From an uncultured Hormoscilla sp. (GTDB lineage: Bacteria; Cyanobacteriota; Cyanobacteriia; Cyanobacteriales; Desertifilaceae), in contig OZ001293.3 in assembly GCA_963921275.4 (NCBI GenBank), positions 5,152,001 to 5,216,000 on the forward strand: 64,000 nucleotides of DNA, given 5' to 3'. The position numbers and the translations under genes are program-made. Each line of letters begins with the position of its first letter. The stretch's first letter is position 1. The notes under the pieces were generated by a model. It worked only from the letters and a program-made list of their open reading frames with translations. It did not search any database and had not been told where the DNA came from. Below are positions 656 to 59,473 of this stretch, one piece after another.

Positions 656-2371
656 GTGCGATTCGTTTAGTGTAAACATACTTGACACAAGTCAAGTATG
701 GGGACCACTAGCTAGGTATCATTAGCCTAGACAACTTATGGATGATGGTGGTGAAAGTCCACCCCTCCAGGTGCAGGAGTGAAAGCATAACCCCTACGGT
801 AGCGATGGCATCAATCCGTAAAGCGGGGTCACTAACCCCAAAGCAGCGTCTGGAACTGGTAGGACAAATAGAAATCTCAGGCAAAGCCAAACCAGCTCGT
901 AGAGTGTGGATACCAAAGCCAGGGAGGAACGAAAAACGTCCACTAGGAATACCGACAATGTACGACCGCGCAACACAAGGGTTACTAAAAATTGCGTTAG
1001 AACCGGAGTGGGAAGCGTATATGGAAGGTAACTCATACGGGTTCAGACCGGGAAGAGGATGTCACGACGCAATCGAAGCAATATTCATCAGCATTAACAA
1101 AAAACCAAAGTGGGTATTAGATGCCGATATTGCCAAATGCTTCGATAAGATTGACCATAAAGCGCTGATGGAAAAATTGAATACGACATCACCAATCCGT
1201 AAACAAATACGGGCATGGTTAAAAGCCGGGGTGATAGACAGGAAAGAATGGTATGCAACCAATGAGGGGACACCCCAAGGTGGAGTCATATCACCGTTAC
1301 TGGCAAACATAGCTCTACATGGGCTAGAAGAAGTCGTAATGGAAATTGCAAAAACACGAAGCGATAAAAGCAAACTGACAGTAGTCAGATATGCCGACGA
1401 ATTTGTGGTAATGCATGATGATAGGAAAAAGATAGAAGAAGCGCAAGCGGTCATAGCAGAGTGGCTAAAAGGGGTTGGACTAGAACTCAAGCCTGAAAAG
1501 ACGAAGATAGCTCATACGCTACGCGGAGACAAACCAGGATTTGATTTCCTAGGATTCAACGTCAGGCAATATGAGGTAAGTAAAAACAGAAGCGGTAAGC
1601 GCAGAAATGGACAACCCCTAGGCTATAAAACCTTCATAAAACCCAGTAAAAAATCCATAGGTAAGCACAAAGAACGGTTACTAGAAATAGTAACCAGGCA
1701 TAAAGCGGCCTCACAAGCTGCCCTGATAATTAAACTCAACCCGGTAATACGTGGATGGGTCAACTACTTCAGGACTGGAGTAAGCAAGGAAATTTACTCA
1801 GAGATGGATAATTACCTATGGGAAATCCTGTGGAATTGGGCAAAAAGAAGACACCCCAACAAGTCAAGACATTGGATAGCCGAGAAATATTGGTCAGTTG
1901 ACCAGAACAAAAAATGGCAATTCCAAGATGGGACAGAAAAAGGGGAAGTCAAGCTATACCGACACAGAAGTGTAGAGATAGTAAGACACATAAAGGTCAA
2001 AGGAACAGCGAGCCCATACGACGGAAACCTCATATACTGGAGCACAAAGCTAGGTAGGAACCCCGAGTTAAATAACAAAGTAGCAAAGCTGCTCAAAAGG
2101 CAAAAGGGGAAATGCCAACATTGCGGATTAACGTTTAAGGATAGCGATAGTTGGGAACTGGACCACATTAAGCCACTTTCATTAGGTGGTAAGGACTGGT
2201 GGGATAACCTACAACTGTTGCACAAACACTGCCACGATACAAAGACTGCCAGCGATGGCAGTAGCCGTATCCATGACAAGGATGGCATTACTGAGGAGCC
2301 GGATGAGGTGAAAAGCAGATCGTCCGGTTTTGAAGACGAGTCAGGAAGGTGACTCCCTGGCTTAGTTTAAT
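656..2371 (+). mobile_element. Group II intron 'B' (IIB/CL-like) with internal deletion
   Basis: GTGCG start at 656; DV GAGCCGGATGAGGTGAAA...CGTCCGGTT and DVI ending TTTAAT at 2371; 5' RNA joined directly to RT coding sequence near 830. Confidence 0.9.
742..2352 (+). pseudogene. ltrA: Group II intron RT/maturase/HNH, N-terminally deleted, YADD changed to YADE
   Basis: RPLGIPT, SYGFRPGR, GTPQGGVISP, RYADE, PVIRGWVNY, HNH (CQHCG...ELDHI...NLQLLH); first ~30 aa are translated intron RNA. Confidence 0.85.
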
Positions 2372-4596: not shown

Positions 4597-5889
4597 ATGG
4601 CAACGATCGCAGGCACGCCGGGGAACGATTTCCTATTGGGAACCCTAGAGTCGGATATCATTCTGGCAGCACAAGGGAATGACAATATAGATGGGAGTTT
4701 GAGTAACGATACCATCTTCGGCGGCAAAGATAATGACTTTGTGCGCGGTGGGGAAGGCTTTGATGAGCTTTATGGAGACCTGGGCGATGACACTGTCTTG
4801 GGAGAGAATGGGTTAGACCTGATCTATGGTGGAGAGGGTAACGACTTCCTGGAAGGAAATGAGCAAAACGATGTTCTGTTTGGGAACCAAGGCAATGATA
4901 CGATCTCGGCTGGAGAAAGTAATGACCGGGTGCGTGCAGGCAAAAACAACGACCTGGTGCTTGGCGGTACTGGTAGAGATACTCTCTTCGGCGACCTGGG
5001 AGACGATATCATCCACGGCGGTAAAGACAATGACAGCATTAGAGGTGGCAAAGGGGATGACCAGTTGTGTGGCGACCTCGGTGATGATTCCATACTGGGG
5101 GATCTGGGTGACGATACCGTCTCTGGTGGGGATGGAGATGACTCGATCGGAGGAGGTAGCGACAGCACCAGAGAAGATGGTAACGATCGGCTGTTTGGCG
5201 AAGCGGGGGATGATACCATCTTTGGTCAGGCCGGAGATGACATCCTCTCCGGCGGTGATGACAATGACCTGTTGCTGGGAGGCAATGGCAGGGACGAAGT
5301 TTCTGGGGATGCCGGTAATGACACGCTCTTTGGTGGTAGCGGCGTAGATACTTTCACAGGAGGTGCTGGCTCTGACAGCTTCACAGTCACCGCAACATCT
5401 GAGGCGGATGTTGTGCTTGACTTCCAAGATGGTCAGGATTTAATTGGTCTAGCAGAGGGACTCGCCTTTGCGGATCTGGAGATTACTCAGGGTACAGGAG
5501 CAAATGCCAATGACGTAATTATTGAAGACACCCTCCAAGGCAATGTTTTATTAGTGATCGAGAATGTCAATTTTGACTCGATAGACGATACAGATTTCAT
5601 AGATGTTGCACTCCCCGAAGAACCGATACCACCAACACCAACACCAACACCAACACCAACACCGACCCCAACACCAACAGGTAATGGTCCCAGCATCGTC
5701 GGCGCAGAGGTACTGGTTGCCAATAGTTCAACGCCGATCGGGAATTTAGCCCAACTGACAGGGACTGGCGCTTCCAGTTTTACGATTAACAATGCTACTG
5801 GTAACACTGGTCAAGAGGTATCGGCAGCTTTTGAGATTCAGGGTAGTAACCTCAGACTGGTAAATAGTAACTCAAGTTGCGACCTATAA
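4597..5889 (+). CDS. RTX-type Ca2+-binding repeat protein, C-terminally truncated by IS982
   Basis: Many GGxGxD nonapeptides; GGAGG RBS upstream; PT linker; last codons come from the IS end. Confidence 0.85.
   Translation: MATIAGTPGNDFLLGTLESDIILAAQGNDNIDGSLSNDTIFGGKDNDFVRGGEGFDELYGDLGDDTVLGENGLDLIYGGEGNDFLEGNEQNDVLFGNQGNDTISAGESNDRVRAGKNNDLVLGGTGRDTLFGDLGDDIIHGGKDNDSIRGGKGDDQLCGDLGDDSILGDLGDDTVSGGDGDDSIGGGSDSTREDGNDRLFGEAGDDTIFGQAGDDILSGGDDNDLLLGGNGRDEVSGDAGNDTLFGGSGVDTFTGGAGSDSFTVTATSEADVVLDFQDGQDLIGLAEGLAFADLEITQGTGANANDVIIEDTLQGNVLLVIENVNFDSIDDTDFIDVALPEEPIPPTPTPTPTPTPTPTPTGNGPSIVGAEVLVANSSTPIGNLAQLTGTGASSFTINNATGNTGQEVSAAFEIQGSNLRLVNSNSSCDL
5629..5680 (+). repeat. (ACACCA)n hexamer repeat encoding a Pro-Thr linker
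   Basis: About 8 tandem ACACCA-like units. Confidence 0.9.
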
Positions 5890-19052: not shown

Positions 19053-19913
<861 letters not shown>

Positions 19914-20166
19914 TTAGCCGTCATCTCCGAGTCGTGGTCGGGCGAATTGAACCGCCCTAAACTGTCAATTAATCTAGGGGTCGGAACGAAGAGAAACGTT
20001 GTCGGGGTCTGTGGACAGGTCGAAACCACAGTAGGCTGGACGAGCAGCGGAAATCTCAGCAGCGGGTAGGACTTTTGTGTCTTCTGGGAGCGCTAGTCGC
20101 ACAAAAGAGAAGACACAGGAGCGTAACTGCTCCGAGGTAATCAGAACATTCTTGACAGAGTAGAGT

Positions 20167-21584
20167 ATGGTTAGGCGCGTGAGGAAAACTCATAGTGAAT
20201 CTTGGAAGAATTTGCCCTGGAAGAAATTCCGGCGCAATCTTTTTCGCCTGCAATGTCGAGTGTGGAAAGCTATTAGAGCGGGAGACAAGGCCCGAGGGAA
20301 GATCCTGCAAAAGCTAATTCTGAAGTCCCGGAGTGCAAGATACATAGCCATCCGTCAGGTAACGCAGCTCAACGCCGGGAAGAAAACGGCGGGGGTAGAT
20401 GGCAAAACATGCCTCACTTTCCCAGAAAGACAAGAGCTAGAGAAACTGCTAAAAGAACAAGCCAAAACTTGGTCACATAGCCGTTTACGGTCCCTCCCAA
20501 TTCCCAAAAAGGACGGGACGACCCAAATGCTCAAAATCCCAACGATTAAAGATAGGGCATGGCAATGTCTTGTCAAATATGTCATCGAACCTGCCCATGA
20601 AGCACTTTTCTACGCTAGAAGCTACGGGTTCAGACCCGGACGCTCAACGCACGACTGCCAGAAAAACCTATATCTATGTCTGAGGTCATTCGCCCACGGA
20701 CTGGATAAAAGAGTTCTGGAATTGGATATCGAGAAGTGTTTTGATCGTATAGACCATAACTTCCTGATGAAACACACTATAGCCCCTCAATGCGTGAAGC
20801 TAGGGCTATGGAAATGTCTCAAGGCAGGAGTTAATCCGGAGTTCCCCTCGCAGGGAACTCCACAGGGAGGCGTGGTAAGTCCGGTACTGGCGAACATTGT
20901 CTTAGATGGCATCGAAAACATCCACCTCAAGCCAGAAGATGATGCTGATGTTATCCGGCAACAGGTCAAGGAATTCTTAGCGCTAAGAGGGTTGAATATA
21001 AAAGCACTTCATACGAGGCTCGTGGCCGCGACAGATGGGTTTTATTTTCTCGGCTGGCATTTCAAAGTGCAACAGAACTGGAAGTTCAGATGCGTCCCTT
21101 CAGAGGACAATTATGAGGCTTTCCGCCAAAAGGTCAAGCACATTGTCAACAACTCTAATTATGGTGATCTCACCAAAGCGCAAAAGCTATCTCGCCTAGT
21201 AAGAGGATGGAGGAACTACCACCGCTACTGTAAGTTAAGTGGCGCCAGGTTCTCACTGTACTTCATTGCACACAGGGCGCAGATGCCTTAATCAAAAAGG
21301 CATTCCCAAGCGTACCCTATCACGAACACAAGCACGTCAAGGTCATAGGTGATAAATCGCCTTTCGACGGGGACATAACTTACTGGTGTCAAAGAAACTC
21401 CAAATATTACGAAGGTCTCACGGCAACAGCGCTAAAGAGACAGGACTATACATGTGGACACTGCGGAATGAAACTACTAGATGGAGAGAAGGTACAGCTC
21501 CATCACATCGATGGAAACCACGACAATTGGAAGCTGACAAACTTGATGGCAGTACATAAGTCGTGTCATGATTATATCCACATG
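20167..21584 (+). pseudogene. ltrA: Group II intron RT/maturase/HNH lacking the YADD segment, frameshifted near 21280
   Basis: NAGKKTAGVDG, SYGFRPGRS, GTPQGGVVSP, then GIENIHLKPEDD with no YADD; HNH (CGHCG...HHIDGNHDNW) in another frame. Confidence 0.85.
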
Positions 21585-23391
21585 GTGCGATTCGTTCAGG
21601 CGTAAACTGGCGACGGTGAAGTCTGGTCTGGTTTCATTTGCCGGATAACTCTGGTTATCATGGGGGTTAAATTCCCTCTCCCCAGGTGTGGGGGGTCGAG
21701 GGTACTACCGGTCCTTAGTGCTGCGGGGTCACATCGCCGTGGTGCTCCGCTAGGACTTAAATGTAGGATAGCTGGCAGCCTAACCCAGTGACGCCGCTAG
21801 GAAAGATGCTCATGGTTAGAACAAGCGAACCTGTTAAAGCCTCGTTACATAGAACCAGCGGAATAAGGCTTATACGCTGGCCCAAAAGGGAAAATGGTAG
21901 TTAGTGTTGGTAGTCATCTATTGCCAGCATCGCACCCAAAGAACTCCCGGGGTATAGCAGGGGCCTACAAGCATCGAGAAATGATACCAGGGAACGAAGT
22001 AACCTCACGTGAGCTGTCCCCATTTGGACCAGTTAGATGTAAAGCGCAAGCCGCGAAGAGGAAGGATGTTCTAAGAAGCCAACGCCTGGGGTAATGCCTG
22101 GGATATGCAGACGTAGGACGGATATGGTAAGAAGCCTTTGGTGAAAGTAGCCCTAACACGTCGCAAAACTTAGGAGAAATCCAAAAGTATGAATATGGAC
22201 TAGGGCGTGTCATCAATTAAGCCATATTACAGCTGCCGCGAGGTAGATGGCACCCAAGAAATTGCGAGCCGTTTTATCGTAGCGTGTCGCCAGAGCCCTG
22301 TATTGCTTGAGTTTTTGGAATAGATTTTCAATTAGATGCCGCCACTTGTACATTTCTTCATCGTATTCTCTGTGTTCTGTGCGGTTACTTTTTGGAGGAA
22401 TGACAGCCATCCAATCCGCCTCTTTCAGGCGCTCGAGCACACGTTGTTCCGCATCATAGGCTTTATCTGCAAGCAGCGCGCCAATCTCACCGATTTTATC
22501 CAATAGCACGTCAGCGCCTTTCCCGTCGTGGGCTTGGCCAGGGGTAAGATGAAATCCTGTGGGATTGCCTTGGGCAATCGCAAGTGGCATGAATCTTTGT
22601 CGATAGTCCCCCTTTACTACGGCCTATGGCTTGGGTTTCGCACGTATCTGAGGGTGTTTTTTTTTGCACCCGCACGCTCGTTGATGGGCACGCAGGATGG
22701 TGGCATCAATCGCGGCGTATTCGTTATCGGCGTCTGAGGCCAAGACATCGAATACCTGCTTCCAAACTCCCTTTTCAGACCAACGGGATGGCGGGTATGA
22801 ACAACCCGAAAATCCCCAAAACACTCCGGTAAATCCCGCCAGGGAATGCCAGCACGATATCGATATAACACGGCAGAACACGAATAATCTATTGTTCTTG
22901 GCTGTAGCGCCTGGGTCACCCTCTTTACCAGGTAAAAGGTGTTCGATCCGTTCCCACTGGTCGTCTCGCAAGCCATAGCGTCTCATATCATGCCCTCTTG
23001 ATTGTTATTGCTGGATAAGGACTCCATACCGTATCCATCTACTTCTGTCAAGCAATTTGATTGATGACACACCCTAGAGTCTCAGCCGGGTAAAGTTCAG
23101 AGCCCCGATAAATTGCCAGAATGGGGAAATGTTAGAGAAGAGCGGCTAGAATGGTTTGCTGAACTACCCTCCGCGATCGCGCAGCGTGCGCGCAGCGCAT
23201 ACCTTCCGGAGCTGAAATCATTAACGGTCCAATAGGATTGACCATAAGGGGTAAAATTACAGAGGGTAAGGGGAAACGGGGTGACCTAATTATTGATGAT
23301 GATATGCCTAAGGACAAGCCCCAGCGGTGAAAGTCGCAAGTCCGGTTCCGCTCTTGGAGGGTTGGGGAGTGATTCCCAGCTCGACCCCGAC
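21585..23391 (+). mobile_element. ORF-less group II intron 'E' inserted at the end of the intron D ORF; itself carries an IS5
   Basis: GTGCGATTCGTTCAGG start; degenerate DV; ends CTCGACCCCGAC at 23391. Confidence 0.85.
22203..23074 (-). mobile_element. IS5-family element (two-ORF type), frameshifted
   Basis: TIRs GGGCGTGTCATCAA / TTGATGACACACCC in a CTAG target; LRDDQWERIEHLLP, LLADKAYD, KQYRALATRYDK. Confidence 0.9.
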
Positions 23392-23494
23392 CAGCAAGTC
23401 AATTGACTAGGTTATCGGGAGCCGGATGCGGGGAAACTCGCACGTCCGAATCTAAGAGGGAGGTGCGGGGTATAACAGCCCCATCGACCCTACC

Positions 23495-25964: not shown

Positions 25965-27491
25965 ATGGACATATCGGAAATTGACAACTTTCAATTCGCA
26001 ATAAAAAAATTAGCAATGATCGATCAAAAATCACTTCAACCGCTAGACAGGGTGGCGATCGCCATAATGACAACTCTGAGTATTGTAATAGTAATTCTGT
26101 TAATGAATGGGGTGTATACAGCACCGCGAGTGCGGAATTTCAGCTGGCAGGATAAAACAGTGAGTGCTGAGGATACTGCTTTTATCTTGACATTCAATCG
26201 GCCTATGGATCGTGAAAGCGTAGAGAATAACATGAAAATCGAGCCGCTGCTGCCGGGAAAAATTAGTTGGGCGGGACGGAAAATGGCTTATACTTTAACT
26301 AATCCCGTTCCCTATGGTACAAGTTTTAATTTGCAGCTGTTGGGGGCTAAAGATAGGCTGATAGGCCAGGAAAAAACTGTAGCAAACCAGCCATTTCTGG
26401 GAAAATTTAAGAGCCGAGATCGGGCTTTGGCCTACATCGGGGTTGATGGGGAAGAAGCAGGACGGTTAGTATTATATAATCTGACTAAGCAGTCAAAAGA
26501 AATTATGACTCCAGAAAAGCTGGTAGTGATGGATTTTCAGCCCTACCCAAGTCGAGATCGGATCCTGTTTGCAGCCAGCGATCGCCCCTTAGCAGACCAA
26601 GGGTTCCTGGAACAAAAATTATATACCGCGACCACAGGTATAACTCCAACATCGAGTCGGCAGAAAGATAAACAAAGGCAGGCAGAAGCTGGGATAATCG
26701 AAACAGTATTAGATAATCAGGATTACCGCAACCTCAAGTTTGACCTGTCTCCAGACGGACAGACAATTGTGGTGCAACGCATTAACCGGCGAGATTCAGG
26801 AGATATGAGTTTGTGGGTAGTTCGTCCAGGGACAAAACCCCAACCTCTCAACAGCAAACCCGGAGGAGAGTTTACCATCACTCCCGATAGTCGGGCGATC
26901 GCCATGACCCAAGGACAAGGTATCGCTATTCTGCCACTTGACCCTGACTTGGAAGAGGTACAACCGATCGATTTTCTACCCAAATTTGGCATGGTACTGG
27001 ACTTCGCCCCAGATGGCTCTGCAGCAATGGTAAAATTTAATCCAGATTACACCAGATCGCTCTTTTTACTGACTAACTCCGAGCAGAAAAAACTCTTAGA
27101 TACTACAGGGTCCATTACTAGCTGCCAGTTTGACCCGAGTAAAACCACCCTCTATTGTCTGCTATCTCAACTGTTCCAGTCTGATGAAATCTACCAGGAG
27201 TTGCCTTATATCGCCGCCATTGACCTGAAAACTGGCAATCAGATACCCCTACTAGCACTACCGACCGATCGGCGAGATATGCAAATCTCTCTGTCGCCAG
27301 ATGGTCTGGCATTGCTATTCGATCAAACTATTACTAACCCTAATGCTGCTCAGGCCATCGGTCAGAATCAAGGCCCGAATAGCAGTCGTCTCTGGCTGCT
27401 ACCTCTGGTAAACATCGCACCACAACAGGGTCAGCAACTGCAACCCCAACAACTGCCCTGGAGAGGCTTTCGCCCCCGCTGGCTGCCCTAA
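25965..27491 (+). CDS. Ig-like-domain plus beta-propeller-like membrane-anchored protein (start possibly 26017)
   Basis: N-terminal TM helix, FILTFNRPMD, repeated SPDG motifs; co-oriented with the two permease genes. Confidence 0.75.
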   Translation: MDISEIDNFQFAIKKLAMIDQKSLQPLDRVAIAIMTTLSIVIVILLMNGVYTAPRVRNFSWQDKTVSAEDTAFILTFNRPMDRESVENNMKIEPLLPGKISWAGRKMAYTLTNPVPYGTSFNLQLLGAKDRLIGQEKTVANQPFLGKFKSRDRALAYIGVDGEEAGRLVLYNLTKQSKEIMTPEKLVVMDFQPYPSRDRILFAASDRPLADQGFLEQKLYTATTGITPTSSRQKDKQRQAEAGIIETVLDNQDYRNLKFDLSPDGQTIVVQRINRRDSGDMSLWVVRPGTKPQPLNSKPGGEFTITPDSRAIAMTQGQGIAILPLDPDLEEVQPIDFLPKFGMVLDFAPDGSAAMVKFNPDYTRSLFLLTNSEQKKLLDTTGSITSCQFDPSKTTLYCLLSQLFQSDEIYQELPYIAAIDLKTGNQIPLLALPTDRRDMQISLSPDGLALLFDQTITNPNAAQAIGQNQGPNSSRLWLLPLVNIAPQQGQQLQPQQLPWRGFRPRWLP

Positions 27492-28204
27492 GAGGTTAAT
27501 GGATAGGACAGGGCAGGGGCGGTTCTACTTCCCTCACCGCAAGCAGATATCGATAGACTGGTAGTGTGTCAAGATTTAATTGATAGGTAAAGACTCTTGA
27601 GCTTTATCCGAGCATCAGTTGTCGTAAATGGCCAGGATATCTGTAACTGCTCACAGCAATAAATAAAGCTTATTGAGAATGGATAACTGGCGATGCTCAT
27701 TGCTATAAACATCCACTGTGTAAAATCGCTCCTTACCATTGCCATATAAGAATTTCAGCTCTCAGGACTACTGTACAACTTCCCCTCGGCTGACAGAGAT
27801 AGGCTTTCCTTGGGATTAAACTAAGCCAACGGGTCACCCCGCCGACTCGTCTTCAGAACCGGACGTGAGACTTTCACCTCATCCGGCTCCTCAGTTTCGC
27901 CATCCTTGTCATGGATACGGCCTTTGTCACCATCTCTGGCAGACTTTACATCATGGCAATAATCATGCAGCAACTGTAGGTTGGTATACCAGTCTTTACC
28001 TCCTTTAGAAACTGGTAGAATATGGTCAACCTCCCATTTGTCGCCATCTTTGAATTTCAGTCCGCAGTGCACACACTTACCATCCTGCTCTTTTAGCAGT
28101 CTGATAACTCTAGCGCTCACATCCGGGCTTTTTCTCAGTCTTTTGCTCCAATAAACCAGATTACCGTCAAACGGGCTAGCTGTCCCCTTAACCTTTACGT
28201 GTCT

Positions 28205-29946
28205 GTGCGATTCGTTCTAGCCTAACGTGGTCAAACACGGAACGCTAGCCCGGTTTCATTAGCCAGGAACTCTGACCGCATGGGGGTTAAATTCCCCTCC
28301 CCCCAGGTACGGGGGTGACACCGGTCCTCGGTGCTACGAAGCGACATCATCGTGGTGCTAAGCGAGGACTCAAATGTAGGATAACTGGCAGCCTAAGCCG
28401 GTGACGCCGCTAGGAAAGATATCCAAGGTTAGAGCAGGCAAACATGTGCAAGCCTCGTTATAAGGAACCAGCGAAATAAGGCTATATGCGCTGGCCTAAA
28501 AAGGAAATGGTAGCTAGTATTAGTTTTAGACTCTGGCTAATATAGTACTCAAATAGCTCCCGGGGTATAGTGTGGACCTAAAGGTATCGCGAAATGTTGT
28601 TAGGGAACGAAGTAACCTCTCGTGTGCTGTCCATCAGGACAAGTTAGATGTTAAGCGCAAGCCACGGGGGGAGGGATGGCCCAAGAAGCGAATGCCCGGG
28701 GTAATTCCTGGGATAACATCTACAGTAATGTAGATGATGCTGGGTAGCCAGCGCTGACGTGGGTCGGTGATACTAGGAAGCTGCTGGAATGAGTAATCCT
28801 AAAAAGCCACGGAACTAATCCGAAACGCAAGTGGAGGATAAGGTATGGATAACTGGTAAAACTGACTTGAAAATGGTGATACTAACGGTTATCAGAACAA
28901 CCACTCGCTAAACCAGGAAAGGGAAGAAAAGACAGGCGGCAAGGGCTAACGGAAGTAATTCCTATTAAGTCTGTGCGATTCGTTCTAGCCTAACGTGGTC
29001 AAACACGGAACGCTAGCCCGGTTTCATTAGCCGGGAACTCTGACCGCATGGGGGTTAAATTCCCCTCCCCCCAGGTACGGGGGTGACACCGGTCCTCGGT
29101 GCTACGAAGCGACATCATCGTGGTGCTAAGCGAGGACTCAAATGTAGGATAACTGGCAGCCTAAGCCGGTGACGCCGCTAGGAAAGATATCCAAGGTTAG
29201 AGCAGGCAAACATGTGCAAGCCTCGTTATAAGGAACCAGCGAAATAAGGCTATATGCGCTGGCCTAAAAAGGAAATGGTAGCTAGTATTAGTTTTAGACT
29301 CTGGCTAATATAGTACTCAAATAGCTCCCGGGGTATAGTGTGGACCTAAAGGTATCGCGAAATGTTGTTAGGGAACGAAGTAACCTCTCGTGTGCTGTCC
29401 ATCAGGACAAGTTAGATGTTAAGCGCAAGCCACGGGGGGAGGGATGGCCCAAGAAGCGAATGCCCGGGGTAATTCCTGGGATAACATCTACAGTAATGTA
29501 GATGATGCTGGGTAGCCAGCGCTGACGTGGGTCGGTGATACTAGGAAGCTGCTGGAATGAGTAATCCTAAAAAGCCACGGAACTAATCCGAAACGCAAGT
29601 GGAGGATAAGGTATGGATAACTGGTAAAACTGACTTGAAAATGGTGATACTAACGGTTATCAGAACAACCACTCGCTAAACCAGGAAAGGGAAGAAAAGA
29701 CAGGCGGCAAGGGCTAACGGAAGTAATTCCTATTAAGTCTACCTATGAAAAGGGCCTAGTACCCAGTAGCCGGATGCGGTGAAAATCGCAAGTCCGGTTC
29801 CTCAAGGGAGGGTCGGGAAGCGATTCCCGGCTCGACCCCATCCACCTATGAAAAGGGCCTAGTACCCAGTAGCCGGATGCGGTGAAAATCGCAAGTCCGG
29901 TTCCTCAAGGGAGGGTCGGGAAGCGATTCCCGGCTCGACCCCATCC
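28205..29946 (+). mobile_element. ORF-less intron 'G' outer copy (28205-28972 plus 29844-29946)
   Basis: GTGCG start; DV/DVI at ~29870-29946. Confidence 0.9.
28973..29843 (+). mobile_element. ORF-less intron 'G' inner copy
   Basis: Complete near-identical copy lying after AAGTCT in domain IV of the outer copy. Confidence 0.88.
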
Positions 29947-31359
29947 GATTATTTCAGTTTCAGAGTATCGGTTTAGCTTCATTCCTCCATCTTCTTTAGA
30001 CTTGCCAGCGAACCTCCACCGGTCTTTCCCGGTCATACCCCAGTACTTACTAGCAATCCATTTGCCCGTTTTGTTAGGATGTCTTCTCTTTGCCCATCGC
30101 CATAACAACTTCCATAAGTAGTTATCCATAGAGCTGTAAGTTTCTTTACTTACCACCGTCCTATAATAGTTGCTCCATCCCCTTATCATCGGGTTTAGTC
30201 TTGCTATTAAGGCCGTTTGCGGTGCCCCTTTATGGCGGCGAACTATCTCTGATAGCTGCTCTTTATGATTCCTTATGGATTTATCGCTAGGCTTGATTAG
30301 GGTCTTGAATCCTAGGGGGGTTCCGTTACAGAGTTTGCCGCTTCTGTGTTTCCCTACTTTATATTGTCGGATATTGAACCCTAAGAAGTCAAATCCAGGG
30401 CTCTCTCCTTCCAATGTGTGGGATATCTTCGTTTTCTCGGCTTTTTGCTCCAGCCCTATTCCCTTCAACCACTCCTCAATCACTCCTTGAGCTTCCTCAA
30501 TCATCGACCGGTCATTATGTATTACCACAAAGTCATCCGCATATCTTACTACGGTTAACTTCTCCTTCTCTCTTTTTGTGTGAGCGAGACCCATTACTAC
30601 CCCTTCCAGCCCATGTAAAGCTATATTGGCTAGTAATGGAGATATAACCCCACCTTGGGGAGTTCCGGCTTCTGTGGATTCCATCCTTCCCCGGTCCATC
30701 ACCCCAGCTTTTAGCCATGCTCGTATTTGTTTACGGATTGGTGACGTAGTATTCAATTTCTTTAGGAGCGCGGAATGGTCAATTTCGTCGAAACACTTCG
30801 CAATATCCGCATCTAACACCCATTTCGATTTTTGACTGATGCTAGCGAATATCGCTGCAACTGCATCATGACATCCCCTACCTGGTCTAAACCCGTAGGA
30901 ATTGGCTTCCATATACGCTTCCCATTCAGGCTCTAGCGCTTCTTTAACCAATCCCTGAAGTGCGCGGTCGTGCATCGTTGGTATTCCTAATGGCCGCTTC
31001 TCCTCCCTTCGTGGCTTCGGTATCCACACTCTTCGTGTGGCTTTTGCCTTCGCCTTTCGAGTAACTTTAATTTGACCTACCAGTTCGATACGTTCTTTTG
31101 GGGTCAGTGCTTTCACACCATCCACACCAGCCGTCTTCTTTCCCTGGTTTTGTTGTGTTACCTGCCGTACCGCTATCATCTTCGCGGACCATGACCTATT
31201 TAGTAATCCTTGGAGCTTACGAACCTTCTGCTTATTACCTTCCAGTGCCGCTCTGTAAATTCGCTTTTGCAGCTTAAAAACTATCCTTTCCAGCTTTCGC
31301 CAGGCGACAGTCTTCCATTCATACTCTTGTCTTTCGACTAAGTTCCGTGACATATTCAC
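29905..31359 (-). CDS. ltrA: Group II intron RT/maturase (RT plus thumb, intact YADD); C-terminal HNH part detached at 27821-28204
   Basis: NQGKKTAGVDG, RPLGIPT, PQGGVISP, RYADD, PMIRGWSNY; frame YSETEII|RHVKVKG is restored when 28205-29946 is removed. Confidence 0.9.
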   Translation of the reverse strand: MNMSRNLVERQEYEWKTVAWRKLERIVFKLQKRIYRAALEGNKQKVRKLQGLLNRSWSAKMIAVRQVTQQNQGKKTAGVDGVKALTPKERIELVGQIKVTRKAKAKATRRVWIPKPRREEKRPLGIPTMHDRALQGLVKEALEPEWEAYMEANSYGFRPGRGCHDAVAAIFASISQKSKWVLDADIAKCFDEIDHSALLKKLNTTSPIRKQIRAWLKAGVMDRGRMESTEAGTPQGGVISPLLANIALHGLEGVVMGLAHTKREKEKLTVVRYADDFVVIHNDRSMIEEAQGVIEEWLKGIGLEQKAEKTKISHTLEGESPGFDFLGFNIRQYKVGKHRSGKLCNGTPLGFKTLIKPSDKSIRNHKEQLSEIVRRHKGAPQTALIARLNPMIRGWSNYYRTVVSKETYSSMDNYLWKLLWRWAKRRHPNKTGKWIASKYWGMTGKDRWRFAGKSKEDGGMKLNRYSETEIIGWGRAGNRFPTLP

Positions 31360-32425
31360 TACTACTTACAACTTCACAATTGACGAGACCGTGAGGGCGT
31401 CAGCTTATCCTATCCATTACAGACAGGCATTTGCTTCTCCACTCAATCTCCCCCAGTTGCGTCCTGCCTTCCGGAGAGCAGATGTTACGCCTGTGGTGGC
31501 TACTCCATCTATCGACCGGTGATGGAGAGTGCTACAACCGGGTTACTTCGTTCCTACAGATGATTGGTCGTAACCTTAGACGGGTTCTCTACGCCGGGTT
31601 TATTGTCAGTGCTTATTGGTCGGGTATACATCCGCCAATGACCAGTATCCTTTCCCTTTTTGGGCCAGTGTATCAGCCTTATTACACTGGATAGGCTTTA
31701 CGACGTTGCAAACCTTCGCTTTACGCTCATCATAGTTACTTGCTCGACGATGACCGGTCTAGGCTCCCAGCCATAGCGCCTTTCCTTCCCGCTTCACGGA
31801 TTGATGCCATCGCTACCGTGGGGAGGGTGCTGTCACTCCTGCACCTGGAGGGGCGGGCTTTCACCACCATCACCTGTAAGTTCTCGGGACTTACGAAATC
31901 CCGGTAGCGGTCCCCCTCCTTGACTTGTGTCAAGTTAGTTTACGCTAAACGAATCGCACGTATACTAGCTTATATGACCTTTACTGCTGCACTACAGACC
32001 TCACAGATGACCTCCGCCATCCCTGCTGACGAGATGGCGAACTATCTGCTGGTGATGGAGTGGATGGTCAAGCAGCAGCAACTGCTCAAACAACAGCAGG
32101 CTAGAATTGAGAAGCAACAGAAAGAACTAGAGGCTCTCGGAAAATTTACAACTCTCCTCCGAGCTGAAGAAACTGAAAAACCGGTCGTCTCAAAACAGTT
32201 CTGTCCCCCCCTCACAAGACCTTCTCAAAAAACCTTCAGCCCCTAGCAAGGGTAAAAAAGGTAAAAAAGGCGGTCCTAAAGATAATCACTTTGGTAAGAC
32301 AGGCTCCGGGATTTGGAGAACCCGATCGCACAGAACAGCTATTGCCTGTAGCTTGTCCCACTTGTGGAGCCCAGGTAGAGCCGGCGACAGGTGCTCCCAA
32401 GAAAGTTCAACAAATCGCAGAACTG

Positions 32426-41397: not shown

Positions 41398-43331
41398 GTG
41401 CGATGAGTTCCAGCCTAACGTAGTCATATACGGAACGCTGGCCTAGGAAACTAGGAACTCTGGTAATCATGGGGGTTTAATGGTCGGGGTTTAATGGTCG
41501 GGGTCGAGCTGGGAATCACTCCCCAACCCTCCAAGAGCGAAACCTGAAGAGCGACTGGAACCGCACACGGCTACTGGTTGGTAAGCTGTTGTCATCAGTA
41601 GGATTACTGGGGGTTACCCCCGTTGTCCCTTACCCTTTGAAATTTTACCCCTTATGGTCAATCCTATTGGACCGTTTAAGTACTGAGCTGCGGAAGGTTC
41701 GCGGAGGATAGTTCAGCAAACCATACTCGCCGCTCTTTACTAACATCTTCCCCATTCTGCTTTCCGCTTTTCGTAAGGGCTCTGAACTTTACCTGGCTAA
41801 GATTTGAATCCAAAATTCGTACTTTCGGAATTTCTCCCTAGTTCTGTGACATTAAGGTTACTTTTCCCAAGGGTGTCTTACCATATCCGTCCTACGTCTG
41901 CATATCCACAGGCATTACCCTGGGCGTTAGCTTCTTAGGACATCCTTCTTCTTCGTGGCTTGCGCTTTACATCTAACTTGTCCAAATGGGGACAGCTCAC
42001 GAGAGGTTACTTCGTTCCCTAGTATCATTTCACGATGCTTTTAGGTTCCTACTATACCCCGGGAGTTCTTTGAGTACGTTATTAGCCAGAGGCAAGAGCT
42101 AATACTAACTACCATTTCCCTTTTTGGGCAAGCGCATAAGCCTTCTTCCGCTGGTTCTGGTTAACGAGGTTTACATAGGTTCGCTTGTTCTAACCATTAG
42201 CATCTTTCCTAGCGGCGTCACCGGCTTAGGCTGCCAGTTATCCTACATTTAAGTCCTCGGGAGGCACCACGGCGATGTGGCTCCGTAGCACCTCCGACCG
42301 GTAGTACCCTCGACCCCCGTACCTGGGGAAAGGGAATTTAACCCCCATGATAACCAGAGTTATCTGGCTGATAGAGCCAGACCCGACTTTCACCTACTGG
42401 CTTATGCCGGAACGAATCGCACTCCCCCTCCCCAGGTACAGGGGTAACCGCGTGAGGTGCTGCGAAGTAACATCATCGTGGTGCCAAGCGAGGACTCAAA
42501 TGTAGGATAACTGGCAGCCCAAGCCGGTGACTCTGCTAGGAAAGATGTCCATGGCTAGAACAAGCGAACCTATGTAAACCTCGTTAAACCCAACCAGCGA
42601 AATAAGGCTTAATGCGCTGGAACAAAAGTTAATGCAGTTAGTGTTAATTAGGGAATTGGCTAACATTGTACCCAAATAACTGCCGGGGAAAAGTAGGGGC
42701 CTAAAGGCATCGTGAAATGATACCAGGGAACGAAGTAACCTCAGCGAGAGGAACGAAGTAACCCCCGTGGTGCTGTCCTCATTTGGACAAGTCAGATGTG
42801 CGTCCGCGTAGCGTGCGCGCAGCGCATAGCGCATGCCCATGAGGGGAGAGATGGCCCGAGAAGCTAATGCCTAGGCGGTGTCTGGAGCATGCCTTGGTGT
42901 CTGGAGCACACCGAGTCCTTCAGGACAAGAGTGTGCGGAAGACGCCAAAGTCCTTCAGGACAAGAGCATGCGGAAGACGCCGGTAATGCCTATGGATACG
43001 CAGACGCGGGTCGGTGATACTAGTAAACTATTGGTACAAGTAGCTCTAAAATGTCATAAGCCCATTTACAGCGTTAGCGAAAGCGAGTTGAGGATTGAGG
43101 AATGTTTAACTGGTAAAACGGAGTGTTAAATGGTGATACTAAAGGTTATCCGGCAGCTCCACTCACCAACCAGGAAAGGGGCGGACGTGCAAGTAGTAAG
43201 GGACAATGGGAGTAATCCCTAGTAATCCTACCCGTGAAAGGGGCCTAGTACCCAGTAGCCGTGTGCGGTGAAAGTCGCATGCACGGTTCCGAAAGGGAGG
43301 GTTGTCCCGCGAGGGACAGCTCGACCCCGAC
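41398..43331 (+). mobile_element. ORF-less intron 'K' (middle)
   Basis: GTGCGATGAG start; DV AGCCGTGTGCGGTGAAAGTCGCATGCACGGTT; ends CTCGACCCCGAC. Confidence 0.88.
41497..42422 (-). mobile_element. ORF-less intron 'L' (inner, antisense)
   Basis: Minus-strand GTGCGATTCGTTCCGGC at 42422; DV degenerate; ends CTCGACCCCGAC at 41497. Confidence 0.88.
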
Positions 43332-43974
43332 TCATGTACAGGGGTGACACTGGCCCACCGTTCCGGAAAAATCGGTGCTGTGGAGCAACATCATCACGGT
43401 GCTGAGCGAGGGCAAATGTAGGATAGCTTCCAGCCCTGAGGAGGCAACGCCGCTAGGAAAGATGTTCACGGTTAGAACAGGCAAACCCATGTAAGGGTCG
43501 TCATGTCAAATCGGTGAAATAAGGCTGAAACACCGGGCACAAAAGTGCATGCAGTTAGGACTAATGCTCTATAATCATTAGTTTTGTACACAAACAACTG
43601 CCAGCCTATAATGGGAACCTAAAGGCATCGTGAAATGACGTTTGGGAACGAAGTAACCCCTGTGGTTCTGTCTCTAGGGACCAGCCAGATGTGAAGCGCA
43701 TGACCACAGTCTTAAGGATGGCCTAAGAAGCAAATGCCTGGGATAATGCCTAGGATATGCAGACGTAGGTCGGTGATAGTAGGAAGTCTTGGGTGAAAGT
43801 AGTCCTAAAAATGCTATGAACCGGTAGGTGACTGCCAGGTATGTATGAAGACGTAAGTCTTGAAGGGACCAAATCTCATGAGGCAAGGGACAACGGGAGT
43901 AATCCCGAAGTTACCTACTTATGACAAGGGCCTACTACCCAGTAGCCGTATGCGAGGAAAGTCGCTCTTTAGGT

Positions 43975-44666
43975 TCCGAATGGGAGGGTTCCGAAGCGAT
44001 TCCCAGCTCGACCCCTAAAATATTTATTTCAGAAACTATAGTAACTCGGTATTTGATGAGTGGCACTCGCACCAAAAAGTTGCTGGCATCAGGGGTTAGG
44101 GAATAAACTGGAAAATAATACCAGGCGCACGAGGAGTAGCGAAGTGGCGCAAAACGAAGGGCTACGTCATAAACAAGATGCGCTCGCGCACTACTAATAA
44201 TTGCGCATTTTTGCTTGCTATAAAGCAGCGTTATCAGCTAAAATAGAAAAAGCAGACCGATGGCTAGCCCTGGCTGCTAACTTAAGCAAGCCGTTCATGA
44301 GTTGTGTAACTGGATTTTTATCCGAATGGGAGGGTTCCGAAGCGATTCCCAGCTCGACCCCTAACATATTTATTTCAGAAACTATAGTAACTCGGTATTT
44401 GATGAGTGGCACTCGCACCAAAAAGTTGCTGGCATCAGGGGTTAGGGAATAAACTGGAAAATAATACCAGGCGCACGAGGAGTAGCGAAGTGGCGCAAAA
44501 CGAAGGGCTACGTCATAAACAAGATGCGCTCGCGCACTACTAATAATTGCGCATTTTTGCTTGCTATAAAGCAGCGTTATCAGCTAAAATAGAAAAAGCA
44601 GACCGATGGCTAGCCCTGGCTGCTAACTTAAGCAAGCCGTTCATGAGTTGTGCAACTGGATTTTTA
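43975..44666 (+). repeat. 346-bp tandem duplication spanning intron J DVI and the 3' flank
   Basis: 43975-44320 repeated at 44321-44666; the ORF track shows the same 346 offset. Confidence 0.9.
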
Positions 44667-51729: not shown

Positions 51730-53496
51730 TTACTGGCCACTGGTCGCTGAAATCGCGAACTCCAACATTTGACCTTGGGAACTGCCAAACTTCAGCTTGA
51801 CTCCAGATTTCAGTTCATATTCTTGATGATGGATTTTTCTCCAGCCATCCGACTCACAAATCAAGGTGCCATAGCGAGAAAAATCTCGCAGCCAGTAAGT
51901 CACCTCCCCGTCACCATTGCCCACAGGTTCGCGGCAGATAATTTCCGCATGCCTTTGAGAAACCCACTTCTCGCCAATGACGATGTCATTCTCTGGTCGC
52001 CTGCCTACTCGCATGAGTCCCCCCGTAACTTGCCATACCTGGGGGGCCGTATCTTCTAAAGACCGGATGCTAGCGTGAGGCTGATTTTTTTGCCGACTCG
52101 ACAAATAATTTTCTGGTAGTTCAGTCACCCCTTCCTCTAGAGGCATAATTAGTTCCCCATCAAACTCTGGATGCATATACAGAACTGGCAAAGTCCAAGC
52201 AGGTTGATTGAACTTATAAAGGGTGACCAACTGCTGCCGCGCTGCTGCCACCGCCCCATCGATCGGCAGGCGATTCGCCAAGGCCCCAGCAAAAGCCTGA
52301 ATAAAACTGAGGGCCTCTCGATCGGCAATTTCCTCACGCATTCCCAAAACTGCTGGCACCCCATGATGTAACAGTAGCTCCGCCAAGCTGCTACGGGGAA
52401 TCACCCGATCTCCGTCAGTATCCGGTTGAGCGCCCCAGCAGGCATTAAACACGGCCAATATCACCCGAGAGCGAGTCAATACTTGAGCCAGTTCCGTGCC
52501 AGACATGGTAACATCCGGTTGTAAAAACAGCAACCCACCATCTGGATCTGGGACACCGTGACCTCCATAGAAAAACACGTTGTAGACTTTTGTTTCCAGA
52601 CGTGCTATTAATTTAGCTGGGGTGGGCTGAATTAGGGTATCCACATTACAGGGCACTGGCATTTCGCCAACTCCCGCCTGTTGATATTGTCCTGGCGGTG
52701 TCTCCTGGGTAGTGCGATTAGTGATCCCAGGAGACGCAGATTTTTGCAGAATTTCAGCCACTACAGCTGCTTCCTGCTCCAGCTGCAAGAGCAGTCGATC
52801 TGATTTTTGCTGCCGAGGCAAGTCTGGTAATATTTTTCTCTGTCCATCCCCCTGCTGCCAGGATTGAGTGCTTGTCGGTGTTGACTGGCCAAAAACCAGT
52901 AGAATATTTAATGCTTGGTCGCTGCGTCTGGGTGGCAGGGGGTCAACATCACTGGTCGTGCGACTAAATAACAATTGCTCAGATAGGGAAATCACCTGTT
53001 TTCCCGCCTGACGTTGCATAATTTCCCAAGGTAGGGTGATTATATTTGGATCTCTGATTTCCAGCCGCAGCCGCAGGGGTTTATTTTGGCCAATGGCAAT
53101 GCCCAGACTTTGAGAGAAACTACTCTGAATCTGGCCATTATTATACACCCACTGCCATAGTCCCATCCCCAGCTTTTGCATCAGCTGGCTACTATAGCTT
53201 GATTTCTCACTCCCAGAGTCCGAAATTGCCTCTAGCATTGATTCCATTTCTGGCACATTCACTGGTGGCAAGTGGAGCTGGCGAGGCAACCCTTGCATCT
53301 GAAACATCTCCTGCCATGCTTGCCAGGTTCTGCTCAGCTGCTCTGGCCATATACAGTCATGGTGAACGTGGCCCCCTGGATAAGGAGCCTTGAGCACCCA
53401 TATGGCAAAATGTGCCGATTTCCTGTGGAAACTCTCCGCCGTCGCCATCATCCGGGCGATCGCAATACTGAGCGTCGGATACTCAAACTGAGACAT
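51730..53496 (-). CDS. CHAT (caspase-like) domain plus C-terminal FHA domain protein
   Basis: LPWEIM, FFYGGHG, AVFNACWG (His/Cys dyad), AWTLPVLY; FHA GRR...VSQRHA...SRYGT. Confidence 0.88.
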   Translation of the reverse strand: MSQFEYPTLSIAIARMMATAESFHRKSAHFAIWVLKAPYPGGHVHHDCIWPEQLSRTWQAWQEMFQMQGLPRQLHLPPVNVPEMESMLEAISDSGSEKSSYSSQLMQKLGMGLWQWVYNNGQIQSSFSQSLGIAIGQNKPLRLRLEIRDPNIITLPWEIMQRQAGKQVISLSEQLLFSRTTSDVDPLPPRRSDQALNILLVFGQSTPTSTQSWQQGDGQRKILPDLPRQQKSDRLLLQLEQEAAVVAEILQKSASPGITNRTTQETPPGQYQQAGVGEMPVPCNVDTLIQPTPAKLIARLETKVYNVFFYGGHGVPDPDGGLLFLQPDVTMSGTELAQVLTRSRVILAVFNACWGAQPDTDGDRVIPRSSLAELLLHHGVPAVLGMREEIADREALSFIQAFAGALANRLPIDGAVAAARQQLVTLYKFNQPAWTLPVLYMHPEFDGELIMPLEEGVTELPENYLSSRQKNQPHASIRSLEDTAPQVWQVTGGLMRVGRRPENDIVIGEKWVSQRHAEIICREPVGNGDGEVTYWLRDFSRYGTLICESDGWRKIHHQEYELKSGVKLKFGSSQGQMLEFAISATSGQ

Positions 53497-53851
53497 TTAA
53501 TACCATTTATCTCAAATTAAAGGTGTAGTAGTTTTTTACCAGTCTACCAAAGAGTTGGATGGTGATCCATCTCTATTTGGGAAAGCTACAGTTTACATAG
53601 AGAGCTACAGTTGTCAGAGATGGTATATAAATATTATCATATCAAGTGACCACGTGGCAGGCCGTGTCACCCCTAGGAGCACTACCCAGGGGACGCCGAT
53701 CGCCACTCGCACTACCCGAGGGACACGGCGCCGAAGCACCAGCCCGACGTACCAGGACGGCTTACCGGACCGATGGTACGATCTAGTTAATCTCCGACAT
53801 TTGTTGCATATATAAAGAGCAAAAATAGAACATAAAATTAGGATCCTTGAG

Positions 53852-55180
53852 TTGCGCAGCAATATCAAATATAAAATTAGTATGACGAACTATCCAGTTG
53901 ATAAAGGATTTATAAGATTTGTGACTAGCCTTGGCGAGCAGTCACAGACGGTTGAGCTGAACATCCGTCAGGAGGTTGCGATCGGACGAGACCCTAGCTG
54001 CCAGATTATTCTTGATTCACTTATTTATAGTGGTGTTTCTAGGCGTCATGCTGCCGTCTGTCCCCTGGCAGAGGCAGGCAGTTGGGAAATTTGTGACCTG
54101 AAGAGCGCTAATGGTACTTATGTAAATAACCAACGGATCTCAGGATGCCAAATTTTGCAGCCAGGCGATCGGATCGTGCTAGGTCAGAACATCGCAGAGT
54201 TAGTCTTTGAGGTGCAAGGGACATCCCCTCCTACTCAAGCATCAGCCCCGAGAACGACAGGTTCCGTGTCTCTCACCCAGCTTCTGCCCATTCTCTCAAC
54301 TGGAGCTTCCCTGATCGACAAAGCTTATCTAGTACCTGGTATCGTTACAGTTATATTTGTGGTGTCGATGTTTGCCACGATCGGCAACTTCGTCACTTTC
54401 GCCCTACTATTAGCAGCTTACTTATCCGGAGCGGCGTTCTACTTTGTCTACCAACTCTGCGGCAAACCTAAGCCTTGGTGGTTACTACTGGCTTTTGCCC
54501 TGCTCACTATCCTGATGATAGCGAGTCCCGTTCTGCATGGTTTTATAATCGTTTTTCGTGATTTCTTACCTGGCGATGTCGCTAGCTTGCCCTCAAATGC
54601 TAATTTTTTCTCTAACTTAATCGCTCACTTTTTTGGGGCGGGTTTGCTAGAGGAGTTACTCAAGGCATTGCCAGTGTTTGCTGCCTATTTCCTCGGACTG
54701 CTGTTAAGTTCCCCCTGGCGACAACGGATTGGCGTTTGCGAACCCCTGGATGGCATCTTGTTGGGCAGTGCTTCTGCGGTGGGCTTTACCTTGATAGAAA
54801 CTTTAGGGCAGTATGTTCCGGGGATTGTTATTGAGGTGACACGACAGTCAGGGAAAGGATTCGGACAATTAGCAGGTTTGCAACTTCTAATTCCCAGAGT
54901 TTTAGGTTCCGTTGTCGGACATATGGCCTACAGCGGCTATTTCGGGTATTTTATTGGGCTGAGCGTTTTGAGACCTAAGAAGCGTTGGCGCATTCTTTTA
55001 ATTGGCTATCTAAGTGCCTCAATGCTGCATGCTCTCTGGAACTCTTCGAGAGTTTTGGGTTCTTGGGTTTTGGCCTTAGTCGGAGCTTTGTCCTATGCCT
55101 TCTTAGCAGCAGCTATTCTTAAGGCTAGGGAACTTTCTCCTACCCGATCGCAGAATTTTGCCACTCACATTAAACCTTAA
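53852..55180 (+). CDS. FHA domain plus PrsW-family intramembrane protease (start likely 53882)
   Basis: IGRDP...SRRHA...SANGTYVN; GLLEELLKALP, GFTLIET, GHMAYSG, LHALWN. Confidence 0.9.
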   Translation: MRSNIKYKISMTNYPVDKGFIRFVTSLGEQSQTVELNIRQEVAIGRDPSCQIILDSLIYSGVSRRHAAVCPLAEAGSWEICDLKSANGTYVNNQRISGCQILQPGDRIVLGQNIAELVFEVQGTSPPTQASAPRTTGSVSLTQLLPILSTGASLIDKAYLVPGIVTVIFVVSMFATIGNFVTFALLLAAYLSGAAFYFVYQLCGKPKPWWLLLAFALLTILMIASPVLHGFIIVFRDFLPGDVASLPSNANFFSNLIAHFFGAGLLEELLKALPVFAAYFLGLLLSSPWRQRIGVCEPLDGILLGSASAVGFTLIETLGQYVPGIVIEVTRQSGKGFGQLAGLQLLIPRVLGSVVGHMAYSGYFGYFIGLSVLRPKKRWRILLIGYLSASMLHALWNSSRVLGSWVLALVGALSYAFLAAAILKARELSPTRSQNFATHIKP

Positions 55181-59272: not shown

Positions 59273-59473
59273 CAGGGAAAACGCATCTAAATTTTTTTGA
59301 CAAAAAACGGCTCTTATGCTACGAACAATTTTTTCTGACCATATTTGACAAGAAACGATATATATGGTACTATAAGGACTCGATCGGTTAATTGGCCTAA
59401 AAATGTGGTAAACTTTGTATCATGGCTACCAACAGCCGAGACAGCTCTAGATGGCTAGGCTTCCAGCTCACAG

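Follow-up and report, generated by a model that had tools for sequence, protein, structure and literature searches.

The locus

We have analysed a nest of group II introns in a 64-kb stretch of DNA (64,000 nt, the window throughout; all positions are counted along it). The centre of the nest is the block 28205-29946 on the + strand, in which a short intron, here called G, lies within a nearly identical copy of itself. The whole block interrupts, in antisense orientation, the open reading frame (ORF) of a third and larger intron, F. The features of the locus are:

27814 to 31959, - strand: intron F, carrying the G nest inside
29947 to 31959, - strand: intron F, 5' part, with the GUGCGAUUCG 5' end at 31959, the ribozyme domains and the reverse transcriptase (RT)/maturase part of the ORF
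28205 to 28972, + strand: outer G, 5' part, which begins with GUGCG and contains domains I-III and, of domain IV, the 5' side as far as the final base of a hairpin at G positions 739-768
28973 to 29843, + strand: inner G, a complete 871-nt ORF-less group II intron, from GUGCG to CCCCAUCC
29844 to 29946, + strand: outer G, 3' part, made up of the final 23 nt of domain IV (among them the 3' strand of the closing helix), domain V (29871-29902) and domain VI
27814 to 28204, - strand: intron F, 3' part, with the remaining 127 ORF codons and their HNH endonuclease domain, followed by domains V/VI (27815-27891)

Direct comparison of the segments shows that the block is ordered 5' part, 5' part, 3' part, 3' part. 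The two 5' parts, A1 (28205-28972) and A2 (28973-29740), are 768 nt each and differ at a single base, A at 28265 against G at 29033. The two 3' parts, B1 (29741-29843) and B2 (29844-29946), are 103 nt each and have no mismatches. Both repeat families (768 nt and 103 nt) were recovered independently by a repeat search of the window, and repeats of this length and identity (99.9% and 100%) lie far beyond chance. The five junctions read ...ACGTGTCT|GTGCGA (host to A1), ...TTAAGTCT|GTGCGA (A1 to A2), ...TTAAGTCT|ACCTATG (A2 to B1), ...CCCCATCC|ACCTATG (B1 to B2) and ...CCCCATCC|GATTATT (B2 to host). On its 5' side the inner G is preceded by T, whereas its own last base is C, and on its 3' side it is followed by A, whereas its own first base is G. 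Its boundaries therefore cannot be shifted, and the insert is exactly 28973-29843. A first-pass annotation of this DNA had divided the block at the same positions into the same 5'-5'-3'-3' layout, and both the segments and the junctions are just as it described them. It had also called the inner intron an identical copy of the outer one; this holds for the 3' parts, whereas the full copies match at 870 of 871 positions.

G is an ORF-less group II intron

The G unit is 871 nt long, lies on the + strand and begins with GTGCGATTCG. GTGCG, found at both 28205 and 28973, conforms to the GUGYG 5' end of group II introns, and the motif GTGCGATTCGTTCTAG (allowing up to 3 mismatches) occurs 12 times in the window where 0.42 occurrences are expected. 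The Rfam model for domains V/VI (RF00029) matches the + strand at 29765-29841 and at 29868-29944, with 44.4 bits each against a gathering score of 40. The group-II-D1D4-2 model (RF01999) scores 22 bits on G, short of its gathering score of 36 (E = 0.089). The branch-point A of group II introns is expected 7-8 nt from the 3' splice site; a consensus fold of G and six relatives leaves the domain VI A at G position 863 unpaired, 8 nt from the 3' end, and the bulged A of the outer G stands at 29938, at the same distance from its end. No ORF of at least 60 amino acids (aa) is present on the + strand inside 28205-29843, so G is considered ORF-less. By these sequence features, G belongs to the ORF-less group II introns of the cyanobacterial GUGCGAUUC type.

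Within the window, G itself occurs only in the nest and in a second, truncated junction with F described below. A blastn search (distant mode) of G against the PLSDB plasmids returned no match. A promoter and terminator scan of 27300-32300 was uninformative on the transcription of G, with 3 promoter-like signals against 5.7 expected and 5 terminator-like signals against 4.7 expected. Several relatives of G at 70-86% identity, together with many fragments, are found in the window, among them:

19053 to 19913, + strand: R1, a full-length relative of G
45657 to 44824, - strand: R2, a full-length relative of G
34323 to 33642, - strand: R3, a deletion derivative

R3 corresponds to R2 minus positions 465-614, and the stretches that remain are 100% and 99% identical; it is a recent deletion derivative in which domain III and the 5' side of domain IV are missing. 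The single base that distinguishes the two G copies falls in a hairpin of domain I, where A at 28265 in the outer G turns a C-G pair into a C.A mismatch. Covariation in the relatives shows this hairpin to be conserved (CCCGG/CCGGG in G as against CCAG/CUGG in the rest), and the second F::G copy has the unmutated G at the equivalent position.

The insertion point lies in domain IV of G

Folding and comparison identify a long-range helix between G positions 565-573 and 783-791 that closes domain IV and ends four bases before domain V. Inside it lies the hairpin 739-768, with a GUAA loop. In an alignment of six sequences, which is a small sample for covariation, 7 of the 18 pairs of the closing helix and the hairpin are changed on both sides, and 87.8% of the cells are paired, compared to 25.6-50% after a shift of the partners by 1-3 columns; in 500 shuffles the covariation score was never reached. 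Three clear helix variants are seen among the six sequences (UAC/GUA, UAA/UUA and AAG/CUU). The inner G starts directly after the last base of the hairpin, 23 nt before the end of domain IV. The placement of the two helices thus puts the insertion site in G's own domain IV, where the first-pass annotation had it, directly after AAGTCT; the exact termini of the inserted copy and the covariation of both helices bear this out.

ORF-carrying group II introns hold their cargo in domain IV. Since the insertion used this cargo site and left both the closing helix and the hairpin intact, the outer ribozyme may still fold, and it could in principle do so with or without earlier removal of the inner copy.

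Pairing of G with its two target sites

Two elements of domain I would guide G to its targets, the exon-binding sequences (EBS) 1 and 2, which pair with intron-binding sequences (IBS) upstream of the insertion point. Their positions, and that of the target in F, are:

29296 to 29301, + strand: EBS1 loop AGACUC of the inner G; the same motif stands at 28528-28533 in the outer G
about 29229 to 29237, + strand: EBS2 stretch UAUAAGGAA of the inner G; at about 28461-28469 in the outer G
28192 to 28204, + strand, antisense to the F ORF: host target, with IBS2-like CCUU (28192-28195) and IBS1-like GUGUCU (28199-28204)

EBS1 is a terminal loop homologous to the loops that pair with the relatives' own 5' exons, and EBS2 is a variable stretch about 60 nt upstream of it. 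The loops of R2 match their own 5' exon with 5+5 bp (UGCAC with GUGCA, AUCUA with UAGAU), those of a Hormoscilla relative (L027b) with 6+5 bp (GUUCAA with UUGAAC, CCACG with CGUGG), and in the EBS1 loop of R1 UUAGA pairs with UCUGA. These homologous loops are the grounds on which we assign AGACUC as EBS1 of G, the same loop that had been picked out earlier from the letters alone.

At the self site G forms 5 contiguous EBS1 pairs and 5 EBS2 pairs (UUCCU with AGGAA), whereas at the host site it forms 4 contiguous EBS1 pairs (5 of 6 in all) and 4 EBS2 pairs; the first base of the 3' exon there is G, at 29947. The self site is therefore the better fit, as had been claimed, by a small margin. Only one intact self-target is present in the nest. 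It lies within the inner G (IBS2 UUCCU at 29727-29731, IBS1 AAGUCU at 29735-29740, cut 29740|29741). As a control, both strands of the window were scanned, 128,000 positions in total: a loose rule was satisfied at 45 of them and the 5+5 rule at 9, two of these being the self sites. The chance that a junction defined by repeats alone would fit EBS1 and EBS2 this well is roughly 1 in 10,000. Among the relatives, domain IV hairpins fail to match the EBS1 of the same intron, so the self-target is an accident of G and not a trait of the family.

The host intron F

The 5' end of F at 31959 also reads GTGCGATTCG. Its protein has RVT_N, RVT_1 and GIIM domains in 29905..31359 and the HNH domain in 27821..28120. 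As interrupted, the ORF runs 13 codons into the antisense of G and then stops (29905..31359, 484 aa). When the flanks are translated separately they read ...YSETEII | RHVKVKG..., and removal of the block restores an F ORF of 596 aa, counted from the ATG, with no bases gained or lost. There is no target-site duplication at the insertion site of G in F. Such restoration without gain or loss is the signature of intron insertion. Uninterrupted relatives agree with the junction predicted by the first-pass annotation: the two protein halves meet residue to residue, in the Hormoscilla loci at 471|1 (nt 7413|7414 in L001-L013) and in another ORF of the window (742..2352) at 414|415. The junction could be compared in 23 of 27 Hormoscilla F-like loci, leaving out L017, L021, L025 and L027, in which this region is missing or poorly aligned. 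None of the 23 carries an insert, and in 20 of them the site sequence is GTGTCT|G. The nearest relatives of F are found in Hormoscilla metagenome-assembled genomes (MAGs), at 79% amino-acid identity.

The two introns have opposite orientations, G lying on the + strand and F on the - strand. Being antisense, G is not spliceable from the F transcript; at the level of F it is thus a disruption and forms no spliceable twintron, and the F protein is predicted to lose its endonuclease domain. The earlier description of a nest inside a third intron is accurate as to place, the block lying within F, whereas a splicing twintron of three levels is not what the orientation allows.

The window holds one more F-like intron:

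656 to 2371, + strand: F-like intron copy, 70-83% identical to F, lacking F positions 173-850

Its 536-aa ORF (742..2352) begins inside the 5' end of the ribozyme and lacks the N-terminal RT region. Its version of the G target, GTGTCT|T, is empty.

A second junction of F and G

The same junction recurs elsewhere in the window:

59473 to 60129, F part on the - strand, G part on the + strand: second F::G junction, in which the 3' 391 nt of F are joined at the same site to the first 266 nt of G

This segment is identical to 27814-28470 at 656 of 657 positions, and the F parts are identical over all 391 nt. The sequence flanking the 3' end of F is different and begins exactly where F ends, which marks the copy as a separate insertion of F and not a segmental duplication. 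After G position 266 the copy gives way to the C-terminal 114 codons of an IS4/5-family DDE transposase gene (60132-60473), and because it is cut there, the depth of its nest cannot be read. Abortive reverse transcription was considered as the cause of the truncation and rejected, since the break adjoins this transposase gene. Beyond the gene lie the first ~57 nt of another intron on the - strand, with its 5' end at 60546.

A protein collection offers a further view of this junction. P0001 (503 aa, on a contig of 6,879,066 nt) represents the cluster that holds the truncated F protein of the window; the cluster has six members. P0001 and the read-through translation of the window are identical at 502 of 503 residues, the exception being a phenylalanine where the window has TGA. 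P0001 ends in ...GPFHR, exactly where an un-nested G would give a stop, whereas the nest of the window would continue ...HRWMGSS. Its phenylalanine corresponds to GAAA in the linker that joins domains V and VI, the sequence found in the relatives of G, in place of the UCAA of G. These features suggest that a sister F::G' locus with a single G exists. Searched with the 54 C-terminal residues of P0001, the proteins of 276-881 aa in the collection yielded its own cluster only, and no F::G tail in other clusters.

Origin of the nest

The reading that we consider very likely is that G reverse-spliced into the antisense of the F ORF and that a second G then entered domain IV of the first. The exact ends, the domain IV site, the fit of EBS1 and EBS2 and the restored F ORF give good support to self-insertion by reverse splicing. 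The process may be pictured as follows. G would depend on an RT/maturase encoded at another place in the genome; once this protein has helped to splice it, the G RNA would reverse-splice at targets that match EBS1 and EBS2 and then be copied into DNA, in keeping with two earlier accounts (PMC4424553, PMC2882425). In a first step a G copy would enter the + strand at ...CCUUUACGUGUCU|G, the antisense of the conserved RHVKVKG codons of the F gene, and so sever the endonuclease domain of F. In a second step another G of the same sub-variant would enter at ...UUCCUAUUAAGUCU|A, at the 3' foot of the domain IV hairpin, a site with which EBS1 and EBS2 of G happen to pair, and the outcome would be the 5'-5'-3'-3' order. 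Three points are inferred: the insertion route (reverse splicing and complementary DNA (cDNA) synthesis with a trans-acting protein), whether G entered DNA or RNA, and the sequence of the steps, since the nest may have arisen in place or elsewhere.

After such an insertion the inner copy would be the domain IV cargo of the outer one. With identical halves, a 5' and a 3' splice site could be combined in four ways, two of which would give dead-end products. The first-pass annotation had proposed that every new copy brings a new target. It does, but it also splits the self-site that it uses, so that one site would be open at any depth and growth would be linear, one copy at a time.

Several observations weigh against this account. 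No free-standing copy of G (at least 99% identity) is found outside the F sites within the 64-kb window. Seven sites in the window that match EBS1 and EBS2 equally well or better are empty, for example that at 47503 on the - strand, with 6/6 + 5 pairs. The +1 base differs between the two sites used, being G in the host and A in the self site. GTCT tetramers (28201-28204 and 28969-28972) flank the 5' part, and slippage between them could duplicate that part alone. Finally, the window contains no intact helper protein: G interrupts that of F, the copy at 656-2371 has an internal deletion, and an ORF at 20167..21291 is degenerate. The ORF 742..2352 was considered as an intact helper and rejected, since the copy that encodes it lacks F positions 173-850. 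Intact F-like proteins (P0002, P0021 and P0053, 588-596 aa) are found in the protein collection on a contig of 6,879,066 nt.

Among the alternatives, a rather unlikely one that still deserves weight is that the nest formed elsewhere, and that either a 1742-nt composite homed into F as a unit or the whole F::G::G was copied. The derived linker UCAA joins domains V and VI in both G copies, where the relatives and the P0001 tail have GAAA, and the occurrence of the F::G junction at two sites with identical F parts over 391 nt shows that composites moved or that homing was repeated. The retromobility of composite twintrons is among the routes discussed by Mohr et al. 2010 (PMC2882425). Against this stands the tail of P0001, which suggests a sister F::G locus with a single G and is consistent with stepwise growth in place. 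In any case this alternative alters the order of events and leaves the nature of the nest unchanged.

An assembly artefact, in which a single genomic G was doubled by the assembler, seems very unlikely. The region is indeed highly repetitive, and a 657-nt repeat at 99.8% lies elsewhere in the window. Mis-joining through a repeat would, however, place the copies head to tail (5'-3'-5'-3'), which is not the order seen; the reads must contain the new sequences at the A|A and B|B junctions; and the one-base difference between A1 and A2 is unexpected if an assembler had doubled the sequence. The location of the family's proteins on a chromosome-sized contig of 6,879,066 nt also suggests a long-read assembly at chromosome scale, although membership of the window in this contig is unproven. 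An artefact is likelier to misstate the depth of the nest (2 versus 3) than to invent it.

Template switching by RT between two G RNAs during a single insertion event might also give the nested order, and group II RTs do switch templates end to end. Here the enzyme would have had to leave the first RNA at an internal position, 769, resume at the 3' end of a second one, and return from the 5' end of the latter to exactly position 768, and the pairing of that position with EBS1 and EBS2 would be left unexplained; we regard this alternative as highly improbable. There is barely any likelihood left for two independent tandem duplications, of the 5' part and then of the 3' part, by slippage or unequal recombination and without any mobility. 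The GTCT tetramers mentioned above could mediate the first of these, but the 3' part ends without microhomology, three breakpoints must match the intron 5' end, the intron 3' end and each other to the base, and the shared breakpoint pairs with EBS1 and EBS2, a fit found at 9 of 128,000 positions. A simple head-to-tail duplication of G is rejected, as it would give the 5'-3'-5'-3' layout, which is seen instead for a G-like intron in locus L027 of Hormoscilla GUM202.

Beyond the two steps of G into F and G into G, a wider reading can be entertained, though we think it improbable: G may be a non-autonomous hyperparasite of the F lineage, with the antisense of the RHVKVKG codons of F-type RT genes as its usual home, from which it deprives them of the endonuclease domain, a self-site that allows nests to form with a fresh target at every stage, and F::G composites that spread through the genome. 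If so, one intron family would control, or ride on, another.

Other introns and genes of the window

The window has 47% G+C and is crowded with copies and fragments of group II introns, further nests and insertion sequence (IS) elements. Some of its mobile-element stretches show 95-98% nucleotide identity to loci of Hormoscilla GUM202. Together with the nearest relatives of F, this points to a related filamentous cyanobacterium as the probable source of the DNA. Another nest is found at 41398-43331, where a 927-nt ORF-less intron (- strand, 41496-42422) lies at position 87/88 of an ORF-less intron on the + strand, with a 14-nt direct duplication (41472-41485 and 41486-41499) at one junction. 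EBS1 and EBS2 of this inner intron do not pair at the junction, which is unexplained, and this nest therefore adds no support to the EBS/IBS logic applied to G. Further 5'-truncated copies follow it at 43375-44017 and 44321-44361.

The region 19053-23493 contains a degenerate ORF-carrying intron with RT, X and HNH remnants (20164-21572) and domains V/VI at 23417-23493. It appears to carry a G-like ORF-less intron (21585-23391), which is in turn interrupted by an IS4/5-family element (ORFs 22213..22590 and 22617..22976, - strand). The complete ORF-less relative at 19053-19913 lies directly upstream of the degenerate intron, whose own 5' end was not found in this region.

Two loci of Hormoscilla sp. 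GUM202 show other arrangements of G-like introns. L027:1-2700 (RFFC02000040.1) contains at least three identical ORF-less introns of the G-like kind arranged head to tail, with a period of 957 and 927 nt and 80-110 nt of flank per unit, and the array extends past the fetched locus. EBS1 (GUUCAA) and EBS2 (CCACG) of these introns pair perfectly with the repeated flank (UUGAAC and CGUGG). In L010:10370-12099, G-like pieces are arranged as + (48-279), - (867-708), - (500-1) and + (433-867), which looks like a G-like intron inserted in reverse orientation inside another.

The remaining features of note in the window include a signalling-type gene cluster at 51730-57467, unrelated to the nest, and a repeat protein:

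4597 to 5889: RTX-repeat protein
51730 to 53496, - strand: CHAT+FHA protein
53852 to 55180, + strand: FHA+PrsW protease
55455 to 57467, - strand: PP2C phosphatase

Significance and comparison with known nested introns

The G nest looks like a young bacterial self-insertion, with both copies apparently intact and one base apart. It leaves the current understanding of group II intron mobility unchanged, and it offers a natural substrate for two questions: how splice sites are chosen among two identical 5' halves and two identical 3' halves, and whether an intron with a full copy of itself as domain IV cargo can still splice or move. It also suggests that an ORF-less intron can inactivate the protein of an autonomous intron through insertion on the opposite strand, in a cyanobacterial lineage (the closest relatives found being Hormoscilla MAGs) whose introns insert into one another time and again.

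Group II introns that nest or invade themselves have been described before, in lycophyte mitochondria, Thermosynechococcus and Methanosarcina. A bacterial intron inside a nearly identical copy of itself was not found in the literature searched, which covers subscription journals thinly, and the self-inserted cases found there are organellar; nor did this literature, of incomplete coverage, yield any paper on group II introns in Hormoscilla.

The closest parallel is the 'zombie' twintron cox1i1149g2 of Lycopodiaceae mitochondria, a group II intron in its own domain IV (Zumkeller, Gerke and Knoop 2020, PMC7049729). As in the G nest, the inner copy is described as highly similar to the outer one and sits in domain IV, and the intron has also invaded another intron as well as intergenic sites. 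The features of this type, an inner intron that is a copy of the outer one and is located in domain IV, are both found in G, as are two structural features of twintrons: the inner G is complete, has exact ends inside the outer G and lies on the same strand (both +), which is not the case for G in F. The lycophyte intron differs in being organellar and ancient, with an inner copy that is reported to be degenerate and dead for splicing. The G nest is in a bacterial host, its copies match at all but one position and both look intact, and it lies antisense in the ORF of a third intron.

In the cyanobacterium Thermosynechococcus elongatus, ORF-less F3 introns are found in the RT ORF of F1 introns, and TeI3i lies within the remnant ORF of the ORF-less TeI3h (Mohr, Ghanem and Lambowitz 2010, PMC2882425). 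These introns resemble G in that ORF-less introns, mobilised in trans, enter domain IV of relatives at places where EBS and IBS pair well. According to that account, the inner and outer families there have different EBS and the twintrons are spliceable, whereas in the G nest donor and target belong to the same sub-variant and the insertion into F is antisense and cannot be spliced from the F transcript.

A second cyanobacterial case is Tery_4732 of Trichodesmium erythraeum, a group II twintron whose sequential splicing has been shown experimentally (Pfreundt and Hess 2015, PMC4649490). The host intron shares with G the 5' consensus GUGCGAUUC and is placed in subgroup B2 by the authors' criteria. 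As described there, it consists of two distinct ORF-carrying introns, with the inner one in domain I, and it interrupts a conserved gene, in all of which it differs from the G nest.

Methanosarcina acetivorans has nests up to five deep that arise by site-specific homing, for which the term 'perpetual homing site' is used (review by Zimmerly and Semper 2015, PMC4424553). The homing there is repeated, from intron into intron, and leaves host genes unaffected; the perpetual homing site expresses the same idea as the suggestion that the G nest could keep growing. As reviewed there, the nests are archaeal and consist of different introns homing into each other. Nesting of at least three levels, as in Methanosarcina, is absent from 28205-29946, where G forms two levels of the same intron and F lies on the opposite strand.

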